Positions 2,234-46,560 of a stretch of 63,693 bases of DNA are shown here, piece after piece. The DNA is taken from positions 1 to 63,693 of the forward strand of contig JACQRE010000158.1 of the NCBI GenBank assembly GCA_016206585.1. Direction: 5' to 3'. The notes beneath the pieces are model-generated. The model had not been told where the DNA came from. It searched no databases and saw nothing but the letters and a program-made list of their open reading frames with translations. The stretch comes from Candidatus Omnitrophota bacterium. Its GTDB lineage: Bacteria; Omnitrophota; Gorgyraeia; Aquiviventales; Aquiviventaceae. Each line of letters begins with the position of its first letter. Within the stretch, counting starts at the first letter, position 1. Made by a program: the position numbers and the translations under genes.

Positions 2234-3519
2234 CCAAGAAGATCGCCGCCCGGCGCGCCCGCATCGGGGTGATCGGGCTCGGCTACGTGGGGCTGCCGCT
2301 GGCGGTGGAGTTCGCGAAGGAGGGGTTTTCCGTCACCGGGATCGACCTGGATCCCGCCCGGGTGCGCGGCGTCAACGCCGCGCGCTCCTACATCCTCGAC
2401 GTGCCGAGTGAGGACCTCCGCCGGCTGCGCGCCGCCAGACGGCTGCGGGCCACCGCCTCGTTCAACGTGCTCGGCGCGCAGGATGCCGTCATCATCTGCG
2501 TGCCGACCCCCTTGCGCAAGACGCGCGAGCCGGACATGTCGTACATCCTCTCCGCCACCAAGGAGATCGCGCGGCACATCCGAAAGGGGCAGCTCATCGT
2601 CCTGGAGAGCACGACCTATCCGGGCACGACCGATGAGGTGATCCTGCCGGCCCTGGAGGCGCGCGGGCTCACGGTGGGCCGGGACTTCTGCCTCGCCTTC
2701 TCGCCGGAGCGCATCGACCCGGGCAACGCCACCTACATGACCCGCACCATCCCCAAAGTCATCGGCGGCATCACGCCGCAGTGCACGAAGCTGGCGACGG
2801 TGCTGTACGGCTGCGCCATCCACCGGACCGTGCCCGTGTCCTCCTCGAAGGTCGCGGAGATGGTGAAGCTGCTGGAGAACACCTTCCGCGCGGTCAACAT
2901 TGGCTTGGTGAATGAGATCGCGCTGATCTGCGACCGGCTGGGCATTGACGTCTGGGAAGTCATCGACGCGGCGAAGACGAAGCCCTTCGGCTTCATGCCG
3001 TTCTACCCGGGACCCGGCATCGGCGGCCACTGCATCCCGTCGGATCCGATGTATCTGGCCTGGAAGGTGCGCGTGCACGGCTTCGAGGCCCGCTTCATCG
3101 AGCTGGCCACGCAGATCAACGGGGCGATGCCCGAGCACGTGGTGGAGAAGATCGGCGGCGTGCTCAATGCCCGCCGCAAGGCGCTGAAAGGCGCGCGCGT
3201 CCTCCTGCTGGGGCTCGCCTACAAGAAGGACGTCGGCGATCTGCGCGACTCGCCGGCGTTCGACGTCGCGCGCCTCCTGGAGCAGCGGGGGGCTGTGGTG
3301 GACTACCACGACCCGTTCGTGCCCTCGACCGAGCTCAACGGCCGCCGGCGCTCCTCGTCGCCGCTGACGCCCGCCACGTTGCGGCGCTCCGACTGCGCCG
3401 TGGTCCTGACGAACCACTCGAAGGTGGATTACACCCTGGTGCTGCGCTGGGCCCCGGCCGTTGTGGATACGCGGAACCAATACCAGGGGACCAGATCAAA
3501 GAAAATCGTGAAGCTATGA
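2182..3519 (+). CDS. nucleotide-sugar 6-dehydrogenase (UDP-GlcNAc/ManNAc dehydrogenase family, TviB/WbpO/WecC-like)
   Basis: RIGVIGLGYVGLPLAVEF, GGHCIPSDP (catalytic Cys), LGLAYKKDVGDLRDSP. The start is uncertain: ATG 2182 overlaps rfbD by 52 nt. Confidence 0.88.
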   Translation: MGRRAARLSAPTGLARLAKKIAARRARIGVIGLGYVGLPLAVEFAKEGFSVTGIDLDPARVRGVNAARSYILDVPSEDLRRLRAARRLRATASFNVLGAQDAVIICVPTPLRKTREPDMSYILSATKEIARHIRKGQLIVLESTTYPGTTDEVILPALEARGLTVGRDFCLAFSPERIDPGNATYMTRTIPKVIGGITPQCTKLATVLYGCAIHRTVPVSSSKVAEMVKLLENTFRAVNIGLVNEIALICDRLGIDVWEVIDAAKTKPFGFMPFYPGPGIGGHCIPSDPMYLAWKVRVHGFEARFIELATQINGAMPEHVVEKIGGVLNARRKALKGARVLLLGLAYKKDVGDLRDSPAFDVARLLEQRGAVVDYHDPFVPSTELNGRRRSSSPLTPATLRRSDCAVVLTNHSKVDYTLVLRWAPAVVDTRNQYQGTRSKKIVKL

Positions 3520-3520
3520 G

Positions 3521-3575
3521 AGCGCGGAGTGCGGAATTCGGAGTTCGGAGTGGAAGCGTCATTCCGAACTGCGTC
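3521..3575. repeat. heptamer-repeat hairpin (CGGAGTn family)
   Basis: GCGGAGT GCGGAAT TCGGAGT TCGGAGT at 3524-3551, followed by the complementary ATTCCGAACTGCG at 3561-3573. Confidence 0.6.
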
Positions 3576-4540: not shown

Positions 4541-4567
4541 CCACGCGTTGCTTCACGCTGCGGGCTC

Positions 4568-4616
4568 CAGGCTACAAGCTGCAGCTTGCGGCTTGTAGCT
4601 TGCGGCTTGCAGCCTG
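4568..4616. repeat. heptamer-repeat hairpin (GCTTGCG family)
   Basis: GCTTGCG GCTTGTA GCTTGCG GCTTGCA at 4584-4611. Segment 4568-4583 pairs with 4601-4616 (14 Watson-Crick pairs plus 1 GU out of 16). Confidence 0.65.
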
Positions 4617-5813: not shown

Positions 5814-6113
5814 GTGACCAAACAAGCCCTCACCCAGAAGCAGCAGGTGGTCCTCGAGTTCATTCAGCGCTTCTTCACGGAGCACCGGAAGTCGCCGCTC
5901 ATCCGGGAGATCCAAACCGGCTGCCAGATCGCCTCGTACAAATCCGCCATTGACCGGCTCAACGCGCTGGAGCGCAAAGGGTTCATCAGGCGGGCGTCCA
6001 ATAAGCACCGGGGCATCCGGTTAGTGCGCCGGCTGGCCGTTGAAGCGCCGGTGGCCGCCGGAGGGCCGCCGCCGCTGGGCGAGGGAGCGGCCGAGGGAGC
6101 CTCGGTGGTATGA
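5814..6113 (+). CDS. LexA-like winged-helix DNA-binding protein lacking the S24 peptidase domain
   Basis: [29 protein letters not shown]...[17 protein letters not shown]...RGIRLV matches the LexA N-terminal domain. A VAAG motif follows. The protein ends after 99 aa. Confidence 0.75.
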
Positions 6114-6253
6114 TCCCACCACCTGCGCCCCCTTGCCGCAGGCAAGGCACGAAGCGCGCCATGACCAGTCTTGCGGATTTTCAACCGCGCGCTTCGGCGT
6201 GGCGGCCTGCTGTGACGACCATGAGCCGCCGCGAGGCGCAGGTGGTGGAATGA
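6110..6253 (+). repeat. ATGA-flanked intergenic element, copy 2
   Basis: Stem 6113-6128 pairs with 6236-6251 (15/16). Hairpins are 6131-6137/6141-6147, 6150-6159/6187-6196 and 6199-6206/6225-6232. ATGA occurs at 6110-6113 (stop) and at 6250-6253 (start). Confidence 0.8.
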
Positions 6254-7212
6254 GAGTCCTCGTCACCGGCGGGGCGGGGTTCATCGGCTCCCATCTGTGC
6301 GACCGGTTTCTCCGGGACGGCCATGAGGTCGTCTGCGTCGATAACTTCCTGACCGGCAGCCGGACCAACATCGCGCACCTGCGTGCGCAGTCGGCGTTCC
6401 GGCTCATCGAGCACGACATCTCGAAGCCGCTCACCCTCGACGGGGCGATTGACGCGATCCTCCATTTCGCCTCGCCGGCCAGCCCGATCGACTACCTGAA
6501 GCTGCCCATCCAGACGCTGAAGGTCGGCTCGCTGGGCACGCTCAACGGCCTGGGGATCGCGAAGGCCAAGCAGGCGCGGTTCCTGCTCGCGTCGACCTCG
6601 GAGGTGTACGGCGACCCCAGCGTCCATCCGCAGCCCGAGAGCTACTGGGGGCACGTGAACCCGGTCGGGCCGCGCGGCGTCTACGATGAGGCCAAGCGGT
6701 TCGCCGAGGCGATCACGATGGCCTACCACCGGGAGCACCAGGTGGCCACGCGCATCGTGCGGATCTTCAACACGTACGGCCCGCGGATGCGCATGCAGGA
6801 CGGCCGGGCGATCCCGGCGTTCATCACGCCAGCGCTGCGGGGGGAGCCGATCACCGTGTTCGGGACGGGGGCGCAGACGCGCTCGTTCTGCTACGTGGAC
6901 GACCTCGTCGAGGGGATCGTGCGGCTGCTCCACTCCGATCACGCCGAGCCGATGAACCTGGGCAATCCGGAGGAGTACACGATCCTGCAGCTGGCCCAGC
7001 GCATCATCGAGGCCACGGGAAGCAAAAGCCGCATCGTCTACCAGACGCTGCCCCAGGACGATCCCAAGCAGCGGTGTCCCGACATCACGCTGGCAACGCG
7101 GACGCTGCAGTGGCAGGCGGCGACCCCGCTGGCCGCCGGGCTGCCGAAAACGATCGAGTGGTTCAGAACAGCCATGGGGCTGGCGTCCGCCGCAGGAGCG
7201 CGCCATGGCTGA
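6250..7212 (+). CDS. UDP-glucuronate decarboxylase (UDP-xylose synthase)
   Basis: [58 protein letters not shown]. Confidence 0.92.
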
Positions 7213-7621
7213 TCGACCTCCGCGTCCCTGGACCGCGATCGGGCTCGGCCTCGTGTTCGGCCTCTATGCCGTGCTCCTCGTCGCCGCGGTGCGCACGGGA
7301 GCACACCAGGCGTTCACCGGATGGACGGCGAAGCTGCTCACACTCGGCGGCATCGCCCTCGGGCTGCTGCCGTGGGGGGCGTGGCTACGGCCCCGGATCG
7401 TGTGGGGCCTGGGGCTTCTGGGGTGCTGGGCGCTGGTGGCGTGCTACCTCGTCCTGCTGGCACCCATCGCGCTGGTGGTCCGTCTCATCGGCGATCCGCT
7501 CAGCCGCCGGCGGCCCGCCCCCCCACCAACCAGGTTGGTGGGGGGGCCCGCCGGCTCCTCGCACTGGCTGGCGCGGCCCCCGCTGCCCAATACGCTTGAC
7601 GCTGCCCGTGTTGAGTACTGA
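7205..7621 (+). CDS. small polytopic membrane protein, SxtJ-like
   Basis: Three or four hydrophobic spans, then [13 protein letters not shown]. It lies immediately upstream of a carbamoyltransferase, as SxtJ-type genes do. Confidence 0.6.
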
Positions 7622-7752
7622 ATCACCAATGACCAAATTCCAAACACCACATAATCACCAAACATCAATGCACCAATCACCAAACCGTTTGGTGATTCGG
7701 TCATTGGTCCATTGGTCATTATGTGGTGATTGGAATGTGGTGTTTGGTTATT
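7621..7752. repeat. long imperfect hairpin, CACCAAn/TTGGTGA family, copy A1
   Basis: ~65-nt arms around centre CAAAC-C-GTTTG (7681-7691). AT-richer than the flanks. Starts at the last base of the SxtJ-like stop codon. Confidence 0.8.
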
Positions 7753-11978: not shown

Positions 11979-11980
11979 CC

Positions 11981-12062
11981 ACAGCCAGCAACAAGCAACA
12001 AGCGACACGCAGCACGTGAAGAATATTCTTTCCGTGTTGCATGTCGCATGTTGCATGTCGCG
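11981..12062. repeat. heptamer hairpin, GCGACAA/GCAACAA family, copy B1
   Basis: Left arm is ...AGCAACAAGCAACAAGCGACACGCAGCACG. The core is the palindrome AAGAATATTCTT (12019-12030). Right arm is CGTGTTGCATGTCGCATGTTGCATGTCGCG. Confidence 0.75.
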
Positions 12063-13240: not shown

Positions 13241-13375
13241 GAATCACCAATGACCAAGCACCAAACACCACATAATCACCAATGGACCAATGACCGAATG
13301 ACCAAACGGTTTGGTGATTGGTGCATTGGTGTTTGGTGTTTATGTGGTGATTGGAATTTGGTGTTTGGTGATTCG
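13241..13375. repeat. CACCAAn-family hairpin, copy A2, inverted relative to A1
   Basis: It fills the whole stop-to-start gap. The centre is CAAAC-G-GTTTG, the reverse complement of the A1 centre. The reverse complement of its right arm matches the A1 left arm at 60 of 65 positions. Confidence 0.8.
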
Positions 13376-15233: not shown

Positions 15234-15238
15234 GCCCT

Positions 15239-15333
15239 CAGCGACATGCGACATGCGACAAGCAACACTTCAACCGCCGATCCTTTAAGAGCTTGGTGGT
15301 TCCGTGTTGCATGTTGCTTGTCGCTTGTCGCTG
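15239..15333. repeat. GCGACAn-family hairpin, copy B2
   Basis: 30-nt arms at 15239-15268 and 15304-15333 are complementary at 26 of 30 positions. The loop is 35 nt. Confidence 0.8.
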
Positions 15334-15343
15334 ATACTCCTGT

Positions 15344-16366
15344 ATGACGCGCACCCCACTCGTGACCGTCTGCGTTCCCACCTATAACCGCGCCGGGTAC
15401 CTGCGCCAGTGCCTGGATTCGATTCTCGCGCAGACGGTGGACGCGTTCGAGCTGCTGGTGCTCGACAACGCCTCGACCGATGACACCCCTGAGGTGGTGC
15501 GGCATCTCGCGGATCCGCGCGTGCGCTGCGTCCGGCACCCGGAGAACCTGGGACAGATCCCCAACGTCAACCGGGGGCTGGAGCTGGCGAGGGGCGAATT
15601 CGTGTGCGTCTGCCACGACGACGACGTGTGGGCGCCGCGGTTCCTGGAGCGGCAGCTCGAGGTGATGCGCCGCCACCCGTCGGTCGCACTCTCGCACACC
15701 GCCGTCTGGCTCTGCACGGAGGAGGGGGTCGCGCGCGGCGTCCATCGGGTGAGTGCCCGCGACTACCTGCTCAACGGACGCGAGGCCTTTCTGCGCTACC
15801 TGGCGTTCGGGCACGACGTGGTGTTTTCCACGACGATGGTCCGCCGCGCCTGCTACCAGCAGGCCGGGCCGTTCGATGCCCGCTACCTGTGCGCCGACTT
15901 CGACATGTGGCTGCGCCTCTCGCTGCAGGGCGATGTCGCCTATGTGGCCAAGCCGCTGGCCGGATACCGGGTCCACGGGGCGAGTGCGTCGAGCGGCATG
16001 ACCGCCGTGCGGTGGTTCCAGGAGTATTTCGAGATCTTCGACCGGGCGGTCGCCCTGGGCGCTCCGCAGCTGCCGGAGTTGCCAGCACTGGCCGGTCGGC
16101 TGCGCGCCCGCGCGAAGCGCTTCCAGGCCCGGCGCGCCCGCATCGAGGCGGCCGCGTGCCTCGCGGCGGGCCACGACGCCGCCGCGCAGGAGTATCTCGA
16201 CGCGGCGGCGCGCCTGGATCGCTCACTGCCCAGTTCGCTCGCCACCGGGGCGTTGCGCCTGTGCCGCAATGCCGCTGGCCGCAGCGTGCTGAGTGGGATC
16301 AAGGCGGTACGACGTCGAGTACGCTCAGCGACAAGCGACAAGCGACAAGCAACAGTTACGCAATAG
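15344..16366 (+). CDS. GT2-family glycosyltransferase
   Basis: VTVCVPTYNRAGYLRQCLDSILAQT, LVLDNASTDDT, CHDDDVW. Confidence 0.9.
   Translation: MTRTPLVTVCVPTYNRAGYLRQCLDSILAQTVDAFELLVLDNASTDDTPEVVRHLADPRVRCVRHPENLGQIPNVNRGLELARGEFVCVCHDDDVWAPRFLERQLEVMRRHPSVALSHTAVWLCTEEGVARGVHRVSARDYLLNGREAFLRYLAFGHDVVFSTTMVRRACYQQAGPFDARYLCADFDMWLRLSLQGDVAYVAKPLAGYRVHGASASSGMTAVRWFQEYFEIFDRAVALGAPQLPELPALAGRLRARAKRFQARRARIEAAACLAAGHDAAAQEYLDAAARLDRSLPSSLATGALRLCRNAAGRSVLSGIKAVRRRVRSATSDKRQATVTQ
16326..16355. repeat. solo arm of the GCGACAA family (no partner arm)
   Basis: GCGACAA x3 at 16328-16348, then GCAACAG. It encodes the last residues (SDKRQATVTQ) of the GT2. Confidence 0.65.
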
Positions 16367-16383
16367 CCAAAAGCGGGTCATCA

Positions 16384-17358
16384 ATGAAAACGGCATTACT
16401 GGAATGGCTGGCGTGTCCCGCGTGCCGGGGCACGCTGCGCCTGGCACAGCCGGTGCACCAGGGCGAGGAGATCGTCTCCGGCGCGCTGGGCTGCGAGAGC
16501 TGCTCGCGCGCCTACCCGATCGTGCGGGGGATCCCCCGCTTCGTCGCCGACGACAGCTACGCCGGCAACTTCAGCTTCGAGTGGAACCGGTTCCAGACCA
16601 CCCAGCTCGACAGCCGGCAGCAGCGCGGCGAGTCGGAGCGGCGCTTCCGGCAGAGCCTCGACATCCCGCTGGAGCAGCTGAAGGGGCAGCTCGTCCTGGA
16701 CGCCGGCTGCGGGATGGGCCGCTTCGCCGAGATCGCCCTCCATCACGGGGCCACGGTCGTGGCGATGGACCTCAGCTTCGCGGTGGACGCGGCGGCGAAG
16801 AACCTCTCGCCGCAGCCCGACGCTCACGTGGTCCAGGCGAACCTCTTCGCCCTGCCGTTCCGCCCTGAGACGTTCGACCTGATCTACAGCCTCGGCGTGC
16901 TGCACCACACGCCCAACCCCCGGAAGGCGTTCGAGGGGCTGGTGGAGCTGCTCAAGACCGGCGGGAAGATCAGCGTGACGCTCTACAGCGGCTATAACAC
17001 CGTCTACGTGCGCTCCACGAGCTTCTGGCGGTTCGCGCTGAAGCGGCTCCCCGGCCGCTGGCTCTACCGCCTGTCGCACCTCGCCATCCCGTACTACCAC
17101 CTCTGCCGGATCCCGCTGCTCGGGTTGGGGTTTCAGGCGCTGTTTCCCATCAGCATGCACCCGGATCCCGAATGGCGGGTCCTCGACACCTTCGACTGCT
17201 ACAGCCCCACGTACCAGTCCTACCACACCCACCACGAAGTGTTCCGGTGGTTCAAGGAGGCGAACTTGACCGGCGTCGAAGTGCTGGAACCAGGCATCTC
17301 GTTAATTGGTGGAAAGCGCACAGTCAGCGACAAGCGACAAGCAACAAGCAGCACTTGA
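16384..17358 (+). CDS. class I SAM methyltransferase with an N-terminal Trm112-like zinc ribbon
   Basis: LEWLACPACRG...CESCSRAYPIVRGIPRF, then VLDAGCGMGRF and LLKTGGKI. Confidence 0.85.
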   Translation: MKTALLEWLACPACRGTLRLAQPVHQGEEIVSGALGCESCSRAYPIVRGIPRFVADDSYAGNFSFEWNRFQTTQLDSRQQRGESERRFRQSLDIPLEQLKGQLVLDAGCGMGRFAEIALHHGATVVAMDLSFAVDAAAKNLSPQPDAHVVQANLFALPFRPETFDLIYSLGVLHHTPNPRKAFEGLVELLKTGGKISVTLYSGYNTVYVRSTSFWRFALKRLPGRWLYRLSHLAIPYYHLCRIPLLGLGFQALFPISMHPDPEWRVLDTFDCYSPTYQSYHTHHEVFRWFKEANLTGVEVLEPGISLIGGKRTVSDKRQATSST

Positions 17359-17400
17359 AGAATATTCTCACGTGTTGCCTGTCGCTTGTTGCCTGTTGCT
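17321..17400. repeat. GCGACAA-family hairpin, copy B3
   Basis: Left arm CAGTCAGCGACAAGCGACAAGCAACAAGCAGCAC, core TGAAGAATATTCT, right arm CGTGTTGCCTGTCGCTTGTTGCCTGTTGCT. Confidence 0.75.
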
Positions 17401-21779: not shown

Positions 21780-22975
21780 TCACCGTCTTGCATCTCTCGC
21801 ACTGCCTCAACCGCTACGACTATATCGACGCGGTGATCCGGCACGCGGACCCCGCGCAGTTCCGCATGCTGGCCGCGACGCTGACGGATGACGGCTCGGT
21901 GCGTCCCGGGGCGGCGCCGTATCCGGTGACCGTGTTGGGCGTGCGCGCCCGGACCCAGTGGCCGGCTGCGGCGGCGGCGCTGCGGCGCCTGTGCCGGAGC
22001 GAGCGCGTGGACGTCGTCCATACGCACAATCTCGATTCGACGGCGATCGGCGCCTTCGCCGCGCTCGGCATCCGCCGGGTGCGGCTCGTCATCGGGCGGC
22101 ACTACGCGGATGCGCTCTATCAGCTGCGCCCCGCCTGGAAGTGCCGCGCCCTCCTGGCGCTGGAAGGCTGGTGCAACCGCCGCGCGGCGCGCCTCATCGC
22201 GCCCTCCTCCATGGTGCGCGCGATCCTCGTGGAGCGTCAGCGCGTGCCGGCGCGGCGTGTCGCGCAGATTCCGTACGGGTTCGACTTCGCCAAGCATCAG
22301 GCGTCCGTGGATGCGCCGGCACGGCTGCGGCGCGAGCTGGGGCTGGAGGGGGCGGCCGTGCTGGGCAGCTTCTCGCGGTTGAACGCCGATAAAGGGCACG
22401 CCGATCTGTTGCGCGCCTTCGCCCGGCTGCAGCCGGGGCGGCCCACGCTGCGCCTGCTCCTCGTCGGGGAGGGGAACGTCAGGCCGCGCCTTGAGGCGCT
22501 GGCCCGGGAGCTCGGCGTGCAGGAGCGGGTGCGGTTCGCCGGGTGGCGCGCGGATGTCATCGACCTCATGGCGATGGCGGATGTGGTCGCGCACCCCTCG
22601 CTCCACGAGGCGTTCAGCCAGGTGATGGTGGAGGCGCTGGCCATGGGCAAGCCGCTCGTGATCACCGACGTGAGCGGTGTCGCCGATGTCGTGCGGGATG
22701 GCTGGAACGGGCTCATCGTCCCGAAGGCGGATCCGGCGGCGCTGGCGGCGGCGGTCACGCGGCTGCTCGACCATCCCGAGGAGGCCGCCGCAATGGGCGC
22801 GCGCGGGCGCGCGCGGGTGCGCCGCGAGCTGGACATCCACGTCATCATCACACAGTACGAAGCGGTCTATCGGAACGTGATGGGGCAGGAACAATCACCA
22901 AACACCAAATCTCAATCACCAAATAATCACCAAGATCCAATCACCAATGACCAAACAATTGAGGTCATCGCGTAG
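21776..22975 (+). CDS. GT4-family glycosyltransferase
   Basis: VAHPSLHEAFSQVMVEALAMGKPLVITDVSG. The last ~30 aa are a translation of the left arm of repeat A3. Confidence 0.88.
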   Translation: MITVLHLSHCLNRYDYIDAVIRHADPAQFRMLAATLTDDGSVRPGAAPYPVTVLGVRARTQWPAAAAALRRLCRSERVDVVHTHNLDSTAIGAFAALGIRRVRLVIGRHYADALYQLRPAWKCRALLALEGWCNRRAARLIAPSSMVRAILVERQRVPARRVAQIPYGFDFAKHQASVDAPARLRRELGLEGAAVLGSFSRLNADKGHADLLRAFARLQPGRPTLRLLLVGEGNVRPRLEALARELGVQERVRFAGWRADVIDLMAMADVVAHPSLHEAFSQVMVEALAMGKPLVITDVSGVADVVRDGWNGLIVPKADPAALAAAVTRLLDHPEEAAAMGARGRARVRRELDIHVIITQYEAVYRNVMGQEQSPNTKSQSPNNHQDPITNDQTIEVIA

Positions 22976-23041
22976 TTGTTTGGTGATTGGTGTTTGGTTA
23001 TTGGAGCTTATTTGGTGATTGGAATTTGGTGATTGGTGATT
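22893..23041. repeat. CACCAAn-family hairpin, copy A3
   Basis: ~66-nt arms at 22893-22958 and 22976-23041, with a 17-nt loop. The stop codon of the upstream GT4 lies in the loop. Confidence 0.8.
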
Positions 23042-44321: not shown

Positions 44322-45595
44322 TGAAACGCGTGAAGGGGTGGATGGCCGTGCAGCTCCTCGTGACCGGCACAGGCGTGGGGCTGGGGCTCTGGCTCGTGCA
44401 CGTCGGGACCCTTCGAGGGGCCGGAGGCAGCGACCGGCTGCGCGGCACGCCGGAGAGCGAGACGATCCTGGGTCTTGGCGGCGACGACGAGATTGACGGA
44501 CTCGCCGGCCGGGATTTGCTCTACGGCCACGACGGCGATGACGTCCTGAGGGGCGGCGACGGCGATGATCTCCTGGTGGGCCTCCAGGGGAGCGACCGGC
44601 TCGAAGGGGGTGCTGGGGCCGATCTGCTGAATGGGGGCGGCGGGGATGATACGCTCGATGGCGGCGCGGGCGATGACGTCCTGAGCGGGCTGGACGGCCA
44701 CGACACGCTCATCGGCGGAGGCGGCAACGACCGGCTGGAGGCGGATGCCGGCAACGACCGCTTGGAGGGCGGGCCGGGCGATGACGCGCTCTTGGCGGGA
44801 CCTGGAGACGATGTGCTCATCGGGTCGGCAGGCGACGACACGCTGAGTGCCGGCGAGGGCGATGACCGCCTCGACGGAGGGGCCGGCGATGATCAGCTGT
44901 TCGGGGACGCCGGCAACGACCGTCTCGATGGCGCAGACGGGCACGATCTCCTTGAGGGCGGCGAGGGCGCGGATCAGCTGGCGGGGGGTCCGGGGAACGA
45001 CCGCTTGGACGGCGGTTCCGGCGATGATGAGTTGGACGGCGGCGCGGGCCACGATCTCCTGGACGGCGGCGCGGGCCGCGACCGGTTGATTGGCGGATCC
45101 GGCGATGACATCGTGCGGGGGCTGGGTGGCGACGATGTCCTCGAAGGGGGCGACGGCAACGACCAGCTGCTTGATGAGGTGGGTGGCAACGATACATTGG
45201 ACGGCGGGACGGGCGATGACCGGCTCTCCGGCTACCTGGGCGATGACCATCTGCTCGGCGGGGAAGGGGATGATCGCTTGGACGGCGACAAGGGCGACGA
45301 CCGCCTCGACGGCGGGGCGGGCGATGACCAGCTCCAGTTGGGCGATGGCGATGACCATGGTTCTGACGGAACGGGCTCGGATCAGGTCGAGGGCGGGCCG
45401 GGCAGCGATACGATTGAGCTCGTGCAGGATGGCACGGCTGACCGCGTGTCCGCAGGGTCCGGCGATGACGCGATGTGGGTTCATTTCGACAGCGGGCCCG
45501 ATGAGATTGTCTGTGGGGAGGGCACGGATACGGTGGATCTCCATGGCAACACGCAGGCGCGCGTGGCGGCGGATTGCGAGCAGGTGATCCCCTGA
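44318..45595 (+). CDS. RTX-type calcium-binding repeat protein with an N-terminal hydrophobic anchor or signal
   Basis: Roughly three dozen GGxGxDxLx nonapeptides. The N-terminus is MMKRVKGWMAVQLLVTGTGVGLGLWLV. Confidence 0.88.
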   Translation: MMKRVKGWMAVQLLVTGTGVGLGLWLVHVGTLRGAGGSDRLRGTPESETILGLGGDDEIDGLAGRDLLYGHDGDDVLRGGDGDDLLVGLQGSDRLEGGAGADLLNGGGGDDTLDGGAGDDVLSGLDGHDTLIGGGGNDRLEADAGNDRLEGGPGDDALLAGPGDDVLIGSAGDDTLSAGEGDDRLDGGAGDDQLFGDAGNDRLDGADGHDLLEGGEGADQLAGGPGNDRLDGGSGDDELDGGAGHDLLDGGAGRDRLIGGSGDDIVRGLGGDDVLEGGDGNDQLLDEVGGNDTLDGGTGDDRLSGYLGDDHLLGGEGDDRLDGDKGDDRLDGGAGDDQLQLGDGDDHGSDGTGSDQVEGGPGSDTIELVQDGTADRVSAGSGDDAMWVHFDSGPDEIVCGEGTDTVDLHGNTQARVAADCEQVIP

Positions 45596-45796: not shown

Positions 45797-46423
45797 ATGA
45801 ACCCTGACGCCTATCGCGAACTCAAAGTGCTCGAAGAGCTGTCCCACAATGCCGATCACACCCAGCGGCATCTGGCCAAGCAACTTGGGGTCGCACTGGG
45901 CCTGACCAACCTCATGATCAAGCGGCTGGTCCGGAAGGGCTATGTCAAGATCGTGAACCTCCAGCGCAACCGCATTCGCTATCTGGTCACCCCCCAGGGC
46001 ATTGCCGAGAAGACCCGCCTCACCTACGAGTACCTGGAGTACTCCCTCTATCTGTATCGCCGCGTCCGCGAGGTGCTCCAGCAGCGCATGCGCGAGGTCG
46101 GCGAGCGCGGCGGGAAGGACATCGTGCTCTTCGGGGTCGGGGAGCTCGCCGAGGTCGCCTACCTGACGATCCGGGGGCAGGGGCTCAACCTCGTGGGGGT
46201 CGTGGATGACCGGGTGGCCGGCACGACGTTTCTGGGGCTGGCCGTGTCGCCCTCCGAGGCGCTGCCGGCCCTGCAGTTCGACGCCGTGATCGTCAGCTCC
46301 CTGGATAACGAGTTGGTCGGACTGAACAGGCTCCAGGAACTGGGAATCGACCGGGCACGCATCATCGTCATGGAGCAGCGCGGCTCGCAGATTCACCCGG
46401 TCCTGCCGGGAGCCAGCCGATGA
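45797..46423 (+). CDS. MarR-like winged-helix regulator fused to a Rossmann-like C-terminal domain
   Basis: TQRHLAKQLGVALGLTNLMIKRLVRKGYVKI, then DIVLFGVGELAEVAYL...VGVVDD. Confidence 0.7.
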   Translation: MNPDAYRELKVLEELSHNADHTQRHLAKQLGVALGLTNLMIKRLVRKGYVKIVNLQRNRIRYLVTPQGIAEKTRLTYEYLEYSLYLYRRVREVLQQRMREVGERGGKDIVLFGVGELAEVAYLTIRGQGLNLVGVVDDRVAGTTFLGLAVSPSEALPALQFDAVIVSSLDNELVGLNRLQELGIDRARIIVMEQRGSQIHPVLPGASR

Positions 46424-46560
46424 TCCCACCACCTGCGCCGGCCACGCCGGTGGCGTGGCCGCGAGGCGCTCGAATGAGTCGACACGTCATGAGAGTGATG
46501 CAACTACTGAACGGCCTCGCCACGGCGGCGTGCCGCCGTGGGGCGCAGGTGGTGGGATGA
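46420..46560 (+). repeat. ATGA-flanked intergenic element, copy 3
   Basis: Perfect 17-bp stem 46423-46439 / 46542-46558. Hairpins are 46440-46448/46452-46460, 46461-46467/46514-46520 and 46521-46529/46532-46540. ATGA occurs at 46420-46423 and 46557-46560. Confidence 0.85.

Follow-up and report, generated by a model that had tools for sequence, protein, structure and literature searches.

A putative miniature inverted-repeat transposable element with a relay reading frame at stop/start codon junctions in Omnitrophota

Mycobacterial interspersed repetitive units (MIRUs), which are restricted to mycobacteria, are direct tandem units of 46–101 bp lacking terminal inverted repeats (TIRs) and any cloverleaf fold, and to our knowledge no duplication of a TGA triplet has been described for them. 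They insert at start codons and carry a coupled open reading frame (ORF) with a spacing of −4 nt, for which a minimal impact on expression has been proposed (Supply et al., 1997, summarised in PMC12548453). Other ORF-bearing repeats are the bacterial MITEs (miniature inverted-repeat transposable elements) RPE (Rickettsia palindromic elements), ERIC, YPAL and the 107-bp Correia element, palindromic repeats of about 100–170 bp with stable stem-loops and translatable, stop-free frames, these repeats being tolerated through in-frame fusion within host proteins (PMC2229807). The element analyzed here, called copy 2, is flanked by ATGA motifs and lies at positions 6110–6253 (+ strand) of a 63,693-nt NCBI contig of a Candidatus Omnitrophica genome (JACQRE010000158.1, locus tag HY599_06375; hereafter the window), between a LexA-like gene and a gene resembling UDP-xylose synthase (UXS). 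It probably represents a previously undescribed, non-autonomous MITE family of Omnitrophota; full-text literature searches returned no description of such an element in this group.

Copy 2 reads ATGA-TCCCACCACCTGCGCC...GGCGCAGGTGGTGGAA-TGA. The inserted element proper measures 137 nt (6114–6250) and consists of a left repeat starting with TCCCACCACCTG, three hairpins and a right repeat ending in CAGGTGGTGGAA, in which one G of the family consensus GGGA is replaced by A. It is bordered by the two TGA triplets of a target-site duplication (TSD). The left one (6111–6113) is the stop codon of the LexA-like gene, in agreement with the earlier assignment of this triplet as the end of a 99-aa ORF (5814–6113). 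The right one (6251–6253) is the stop codon of a 47-codon mini-ORF that starts at ATG 6110, and it overlaps the ATG of the downstream gene by 4 nt (ATGA). With a stop codon directly on one side and a start codon directly on the other, copy 2 has the layout expected for translational linkage. An earlier note, made from the sequence alone, had recognized this stop/start junction but had overlooked the mini-ORF running from the left ATGA to the right one. Its choice of ATG 6250 as the downstream start was correct, since the Pfam match begins at residue 3 of that protein and an orthologue with 71% identity has the same N-terminus.

The minimum-free-energy (MFE) fold of copy 2 is made up of a closing stem and three hairpins, at −83.9 kcal/mol versus −56.7 ± 3.7 for 200 dinucleotide shuffles (z = −7.45), none of which was as good. 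The pairing of 6113–6128 with 6236–6251 reported previously was recovered at 15 of 16 positions, with the mismatch C6115/A6249, and one additional pair, C6129–G6235, extends this stem to 17 bp. Its 5′ arm (6113–6129) codes for I-P-P-P-A-P of the mini-ORF, and its 3′ arm (6235–6251) holds a Shine-Dalgarno-like GGUGG together with the AT (6250–6251) of the regenerated ATG 6250–6252. The three hairpins proposed at the same time were all found in place: H1 at 6131–6147 (7 bp, 6131–6137/6141–6147, with a GCA loop; CCTTGCC-gca-GGCAAGG), H2 at 6150–6196 (10 bp, 6150–6159/6187–6196, with a 27-nt loop starting CATGACC) and H3 at 6198–6233 (6198–6206/6225–6233), which has 9 bp in the MFE fold.

Two other copies are present on the + strand of the window. 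Copy 1 (173–313; element 177–310, TGA duplications 174–176 and 311–313) lies between the C-terminus of an NTP-transferase (RmlA-like) and an RmlB-like dehydratase, and copy 3 (46420–46560; element 46424–46557, TGA duplications 46421–46423 and 46558–46560) between a MarR/winged-helix gene and a transglutaminase-like gene. Their ends are identical to those of copy 2, both form the stem and the three hairpins (z = −6.9 and −7.7), and the mini-ORF is open in all three copies, with 46 codons in copies 1 and 3. The three copies were folded jointly with RNAalifold, a check that the earlier note had itself put forward. The closing stem and the three hairpins were obtained, with 43 consensus pairs, 10 of them with compensatory changes. 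The joint-fold energy was −60.9 kcal/mol, as compared with −36.3 ± 3.4 when only the interiors were shuffled and −10.2 ± 3.0 kcal/mol for whole-sequence shuffles, and with neither type of shuffle was any of the 40 controls as low. A common architecture with differing helix sequences, as first described, is thus borne out. The conclusion drawn from it, selection on structure rather than recent copying, held in its first half, since pairing is kept by compensatory changes, but the opposition to copying was contradicted by the TSDs and the empty sites presented below. The three copies appear unrelated to one another because they represent different subfamilies within a single mobile family, and copy 2 has clear relatives in other genomes.

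The size and host range of this family were assessed with an exact two-arm pattern (TCCCACCACCTG, 95–125 nt, CAGGTGGTGG), the family end motifs being TCCCACCACCTG...CAGGTGGTGGGA. In 185,579 species-representative genomes, 89 stretches were found, nearly all of them in metagenome-assembled genomes, about 20 in number, that bear the label Candidatus Omnitrophota/Omnitrophica or Planctomycetales. Another two matches, present on one strand only, look like chance. A metagenome scan gave at least 120 stretches, and all the metagenome figures below (n = 135, 105, 97 and 100) are among the matches listed. About 230 copies were found, in some 20 Omnitrophota genomes and in metagenomes, and no match to the two-arm pattern was obtained in viral contigs. 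For copy 2, the covariance model R1 gave scores of 113 bits (+ strand) and 40 bits (− strand). When a covariance model was built from the subfamily containing copy 2, it recovered the family on both strands and, within the window, detected only the three known copies. The elements are about 110–161 nt long and have no coding capacity for a transposase, their sole frame being an unconserved ORF of 41–52 codons without a Pfam match.

Evidence for mobility was obtained from the flanks. Matching 3-nt direct repeats surround the 12-nt arms in 88/92 genome copies and 118/135 metagenome copies. The duplications of the genome copies were TGA/TCA (82), TAA/TTA (3), TGG/CCA (2) and CGA (1), and variant subfamilies showed matched TAG, TGG and TGT repeats. 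Because triplets that are not stop codons also match on both sides, the flanking triplets are a target-site duplication and not just two functional stops. Moreover, simulated empty sites aligned unbroken to seven element-free loci in other genomes. The cleanest case was CCATGA[element]TGAGCG (locus L018) versus TCATGAGCG (L056). For copy 2, the empty site was found in a 172-kb metagenome contig (L090), which reads GGTGGAGGGATGAGAGTCCTCGTGACCGG where the window reads GGTGGTATGA[137 nt]TGAGAGTCCTCGTCACCGG. This contig has the same gene order as the window (UDP-glucose dehydrogenase, epimerase, DegT aminotransferase, LexA-domain protein, epimerase). Here a single ATGA forms the 4-nt overlap between the LexA-like and the UXS-like gene, and the UXS orthologues are 71% identical from residue 1 onward. 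For a second contig, the gene calls alone show the same 4-nt overlap between the LexA-like gene and the one that follows it.

The terminal inverted repeats comprise 17 complementary bases, of which 13 are nearly invariant (TCCCACCACCTG and the flanking A/T pair) and four covary freely, so that the closing stem is exactly 17 bp long; 12 of the 13 near-invariant pairs are fixed by the search pattern. In variant terminal repeats both arms are altered together, for example TCCCCCCACCTG/CAGGTGGGGGGA. Elements also insert in the ATGA made by an earlier element, giving tandem copies with a shared TGA. Small size, TIRs, a TSD and many dispersed copies with filled and empty sites are all features of a MITE, and all of them were found here. 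Readings as an attC site, a retron or a riboswitch were dropped, as target duplication and copy number do not fit them.

Tandem or nested elements sharing one TGA were seen at L057 (1037–1163), L151 (2188–2480), L001 (3824–4109), L116 and L145. They often carry a variant terminal repeat such as ...GGTGGTGCGGATGA, and the new ATGA of each element is a re-usable target. Copies flanked by TGG lie on ATGG starts at L042 (4566–4698) and L088 (1312–1459), with further TGG/CCA copies in the metagenome set; the lengths of L042 and L088 are divisible by three, which permits in-frame read-through into the host gene and possibly an N-terminal extension.

A formerly mobile element could by now have been domesticated for a function at the DNA level, as a protein-binding, cruciform, recombination or supercoiling site comparable to REP/BIME sequences, with the ORF as a side condition. 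The 13 terminal bases are nearly invariant in elements whose G+C ranges from 42 to 80% across genomes, and both strands are equivalent, as this explanation would have it. We nevertheless give it very little probability, since the position is tied to start codons and not to operon ends or the other intergenic positions examined, and insertion polymorphism between related genomes means that the sites are dispensable. We also know of no binding protein for the element.

For the analysis of reading frames all copies were placed in the orientation that has TGA as the duplication. The left TGA was preceded by A (161 copies), G (17), T (3) or C (7; n = 188), which gives ATG, GTG or TTG in 96% of them, roughly the start-codon usage of bacteria. 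The left NTG was in phase with the right TGA in 71/83 genome copies and 86/105 metagenome copies, and both in phase and free of stops in 71/83 and 84/105, respectively (together 155/188), while each of the other five frames was open in 38–44/83 and 35–50/105 (about 33–53%). The metagenome set is an independent replication, because it was analyzed after the hypothesis had been formed. When the genome set was collapsed to 28 lineages without shared interior similarity, 22 were in phase (binomial p = 1.2e-6), and among these 22 frame 0 was open in 21 as compared with 9 and 5 for the other sense frames (Fisher p = 7e-7).

The gene context agrees with the position seen in copy 2. The stop codon of the mini-ORF is the TGA that shares bases with the rebuilt ATG of the following gene, and a long ORF begins exactly at this right-hand ATG in 79/85 genome and 86/97 metagenome copies. 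At the left TGA, 66/85 and 59/100 copies, respectively, have the end of a long ORF, and the remaining copies lie on a start codon without an overlapping upstream gene or behind another element. A Shine-Dalgarno-like motif was present 4–18 nt upstream of the left start in 88/175 copies versus 23/175 in a control window; this enrichment fits the left NTG being the original start codon of the gene. Native ribosome-binding sites in the host genomes are mainly GGAG/GAGG, with GGTG mildly enriched, and for that reason the GGUGG of the element is called only Shine-Dalgarno-like. The genes next to the element are functionally unrelated from copy to copy.

The open, in-phase frame, its start codon and the Shine-Dalgarno-like motif upstream would equally be expected of a family of functional small proteins (41–52 aa, MIPPP...QVVG) in which the inverted repeats were incidental. 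The peptides, however, have in common only the TIR-encoded M-I-P-P-P...Q-V-V-G, the interior being unrelated between subfamilies and hypervariable within them, and no Pfam match was found. In addition, a deletion derivative of 29 nt (L023, 4138–4173) retains the ends alone and still has an in-phase ORF of 11 codons (ATG ATC CCA CCA CCT GTT TTG CAG GTG GTG GGA TGA). A small-protein family is thus extremely improbable. In the window itself, a perfect hairpin, CCCCCCCACCAACC-A-GGTTGGTGGGGGGG, is located at 7523–7552 inside the ORF 7205–7621, where it reads ...PPP..LVGG...; it resembles the minimal derivative MIPPPVLQVVG in sequence and frame and may be an in-frame relic.

The fold was then considered across the family. 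At position 14 of the stem C-G, G-C and T-A pairs were almost equally frequent (25, 24 and 23), and position 18 was unpaired in 83/85 copies. On individual folding, 57/85 copies formed the stem and three hairpins. In the covariance-model alignment, 97.1% of the cells were standard pairs versus 69.4% in shuffles and 34–55% with slid partners, with double changes at every pair of the three inner helices; because both strands enter this alignment, which is fitted to the model, these pairing counts lean towards structure. A strand-specific RNA signature was sought and was not found: the difference between sense and antisense MFE was −0.04 ± 5.5 kcal/mol, and G-U pairs numbered 225 versus 219. By these comparisons the pairing constraint is real but not assignable to the sense mRNA. 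It could act on the DNA or on both transcripts over evolutionary time, or it could partly reflect palindrome-correcting mutation.

These data bear on the view that the element is a cis-regulatory structured RNA of the host (an attenuator, a thermometer, or a leader binding a protein or ligand) that regulates the downstream sugar gene. The strong family-wide fold with compensatory changes speaks for it, as does the burial of the downstream start codon and GGUGG in the closing stem. The TSDs and empty sites, on the other hand, show insertion; the neighbouring genes have no function in common; loops and junctions have no conserved nucleotides; both strands fold equally well, with equal G-U counts; and a pure switch would need no codon-phase constraint. 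No Rfam 15 covariance model matched at its gathering score anywhere in the window, and a permissive scan of 6080–6280 gave a best E-value of 0.16, far below the gathering score. A regulatory RNA is consequently very unlikely, and the element is not a free-standing one.

The explanation that we favour for the persistence of the family, and consider likely, is that of selfish DNA which the host can bear at start codons, since translational coupling is maintained through a relay ORF in the way proposed for MIRUs. The element sits where TGA belongs to N-TG-A (a start codon followed by A), very often in the ATGA overlap of co-directional genes. After insertion, its terminal A and the duplicated TG rebuild the ATG of the downstream gene, and the original start codon now opens a frame of 41–52 codons across the whole element. 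Ribosomes arriving from the upstream gene, or loading at the original ribosome-binding site of the gene, would translate this relay ORF and would thereby melt the 17-bp stem, in which the downstream GGUGG and AUG are otherwise hidden. Termination at AUGA would be followed by re-initiation on the downstream gene. In this way the host would incur little cost from the insertion, and only copies keeping the frame would persist. The cloverleaf formed by the closing stem and the three hairpins might be kept because a transposase needs it or because it insulates the element from the neighbouring mRNA.

Several points weigh against this explanation. The coupling step is one that we infer from the sequence layout. 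About 18% of the copies are out of phase or closed and persist all the same, and a very stable stem beginning 3 nt past the start codon of the mini-ORF might hinder initiation. The extended target preference beyond (A)TGA is weak, the match to the right end of the element being 4.27 versus 3.65 of 11 bases when occupied sites are compared with 272 unoccupied ATGA overlaps, a difference that includes tandem insertions. Because of this weakness, targeting of ATGA and survival at ATGA are inseparable. Within subfamilies, the hairpin stems are conserved in sequence while the 20–25-nt loops are saturated with change. Moreover, there are two architecture classes which, according to model scores on opposite strands, mirror each other with respect to the direction of the gene, and the orientation of the interior with respect to the gene is almost fixed in each subfamily (9:0, 7:1, 5:3, 4:0 and 3:0). 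In the 9:0 cluster, 7/9 copies would stay open if flipped; insertion in random orientation followed by selection on the ORF is not a full explanation, since copies that could be flipped keep one orientation. Finally, about 1.4 Mb of loci were searched for an autonomous element bearing these terminal repeats, and none was detected. That search covered arms with up to one or two mismatches, unpaired or far apart, and pairs 0.3–4 kb apart enclosing a long ORF; for a single-arm scan, with 14 specified bases, thousands of chance matches are expected in large collections. The candidate partners were rejected, being tandem or degenerate copies (L151) or lacking a long ORF between the arms (L112).

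As a separate observation on the loops, the paralogues L024, L032, L046, L049, L066, L072 and L077, all from one genome, have nearly identical hairpin stems and two loops of 20–25 nt without similarity.

Conserved stems with drifting loops and a nearly fixed interior orientation relative to the TGA strand would be natural for mobility through single-stranded DNA, in the manner of palindromic elements derived from IS200/IS605 or of REP/RAYT systems, with the hairpins as recognition sites of a transposase. The left ATGA would then be a fixed target tetranucleotide, and the right ATGA the cleavage site of the element itself instead of a duplication. The hairpins H1 and H3 are indeed subterminal, lying just inside the ends, and the structure is symmetric between strands. 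The IS200/IS605 family, however, has neither TIRs nor target duplications, both of which are present in the element, and the rare flanks other than TGA (TAA, TGG, CGA, TAG and TGT) match on both sides, for which a staggered cut followed by fill-in is a better explanation. No Y1/HUH gene was seen beside any copy, although no systematic search for one was made. Taken together, this route of transposition is unlikely.

Beyond a tolerated parasite, the family could be a portable translational coupler or regulator, with polyproline pausing and structure-guided transposition as parts of the proposal; this wider reading is a speculative one, to which we attach a low probability. In every copy the mini-ORF starts with I-P-P-P, encoded by the 5′ arm of the closing stem, and polyproline (PPP) is a stall motif whose translation depends on elongation factor EF-P. 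A ribosome paused on PPP would hold the stem open and so free the Shine-Dalgarno-like site and the AUG on the 3′ arm. If so, the expression of many unrelated operons, including the surface-sugar genes of this window, could depend on upstream translation and on EF-P status. Additionally, transposition may be guided by structure through an undescribed mechanism, and not be a classical DDE cut-and-paste; possible signs of this are the conserved cloverleaf, the orientation that is fixed in each subfamily and the hypervariability of the loops.

Regarding the genes next to copy 2, the upstream LexA-like gene (5814–6113, + strand; 99 aa) contains only the LexA DNA-binding domain according to Pfam. 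It had been described as truncated; in fact it is full length, since its listed homologues (the best 120 of 231 matches) all have 84–130 aa and only this domain. The downstream gene (6250–7212, + strand) encodes a NAD-dependent epimerase/dehydratase resembling UDP-glucuronate decarboxylase, that is, the UXS-like protein. Its frame is open upstream across the whole element as far as TTG 6040 (6040–7212), which might lead to a false gene call of 390 aa; the true start is ATG 6250, as the orthologue in the metagenome contig with the empty site shows. Exact-protein look-ups of the UXS-like and LexA-like proteins of the window returned no record.

Other repeats were also observed in the window. Long imperfect palindromes of about 130 nt, rich in A and T in a genome otherwise of about 65% G+C, are located at 7620–7752, 13242–13374 and 22893–23041 and contain degenerate ATCACCAA/TTGGTGAT motifs; the first begins right at a stop codon, and this repeat family is unrelated to the ATGA-flanked element. 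An intergenic palindrome family with runs of GCGACAA/GCAACAA heptamers facing their complements occurs at 11980–12061, 15237–15331, 16320–16369 and 17319–17400. Low-complexity intergenic hairpins lie between sugar-pathway genes at 4550–4613 and 3519–3575 (GCTTGCGGCTTGTAGC... and CGGAGT/GGAATTCGGA...), and several of the examined intergenic spacers of the sugar gene cluster hold palindromic repeats of some kind. At least 18 tandem 27-nt (9-aa) repeats of the GGxGxD type, typical of RTX calcium-binding proteins, were found at 44479–45381.

With a sample of about 190 copies replicated in two data sets, the family would be a second, independent and statistically clean natural case, after MIRUs, of mobile DNA inserting at start codons together with a relay frame of its own. 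It shows a route by which a transposon may colonise compact, operon-rich genomes with little apparent harm to operon expression. It also provides a naturally occurring, modular "bicistronic coupler", the rules of which the sequences themselves reveal (ATGA at both ends, phase kept, a 17-bp clamp), and it raises questions on termination-reinitiation through highly structured RNA. For annotation, it accounts for recurrent hypothetical proteins of about 45 aa and for apparent intergenic gaps of 140 nt in Omnitrophota and other uncultured genomes.

Compared with known systems, the element has several partial counterparts. IS5-family transposons of the IS1031 group, which have a DDE transposase, and PIF-Harbinger-type transposons would resemble it in a 3-bp TNA-type duplication (TGA/TCA, TAA/TTA) and in short perfect TIRs; in the approximately 1.4 Mb of loci, neither a transposase gene nor a full-length element with ends of the TCCCACCACCTG type was detected, and TGG, CGA and TGT duplications occur too. 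Elements derived from IS200/IS605 and REP/REPIN-RAYT sequences are similar in their subterminal hairpins, high copy number, consistent orientation and conserved stems with free loops. They lack TIRs, target duplication and any codon-phase constraint, however, and lie mostly at the 3′ ends of genes and not at start codons. Insertion 3′ of a fixed tetranucleotide without TIRs or a target duplication, which characterizes them, does not describe this element, as it has both inverted repeats and matching, variable duplications. RPE, ERIC, YPAL and Correia repeats are fused inside host proteins or lie in untranslated intergenic DNA, mostly with a TA duplication, whereas the element described here is a separate cistron bounded by overlapping stop and start codons. 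Copy 2 and most other copies are bounded by in-frame stops on both sides, so that they are not in-frame insertions of the RPE type, and only the rare TGG copies L042 and L088 look fused. The element resembles MIRUs in that both are short repeats at start codons or between cistrons whose small ORF has 4-nt overlaps with the upstream stop and the downstream start, and for both the ORF is proposed to maintain coupled translation and so make the insertion almost harmless. An ORF with −4-nt overlaps at gene starts was found in the same 155/188 copies counted above. In contrast to MIRUs, the element is palindromic and usually occurs as one unit; its inverted ends measure 17 bp, it has a 3-bp duplication, and its own terminal A rebuilds the ATG. 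The proposed tolerance through a relay ORF is known in principle from MIRUs, and what is new is its occurrence alongside inverted termini, a duplicated TGA and a cloverleaf that is conserved.

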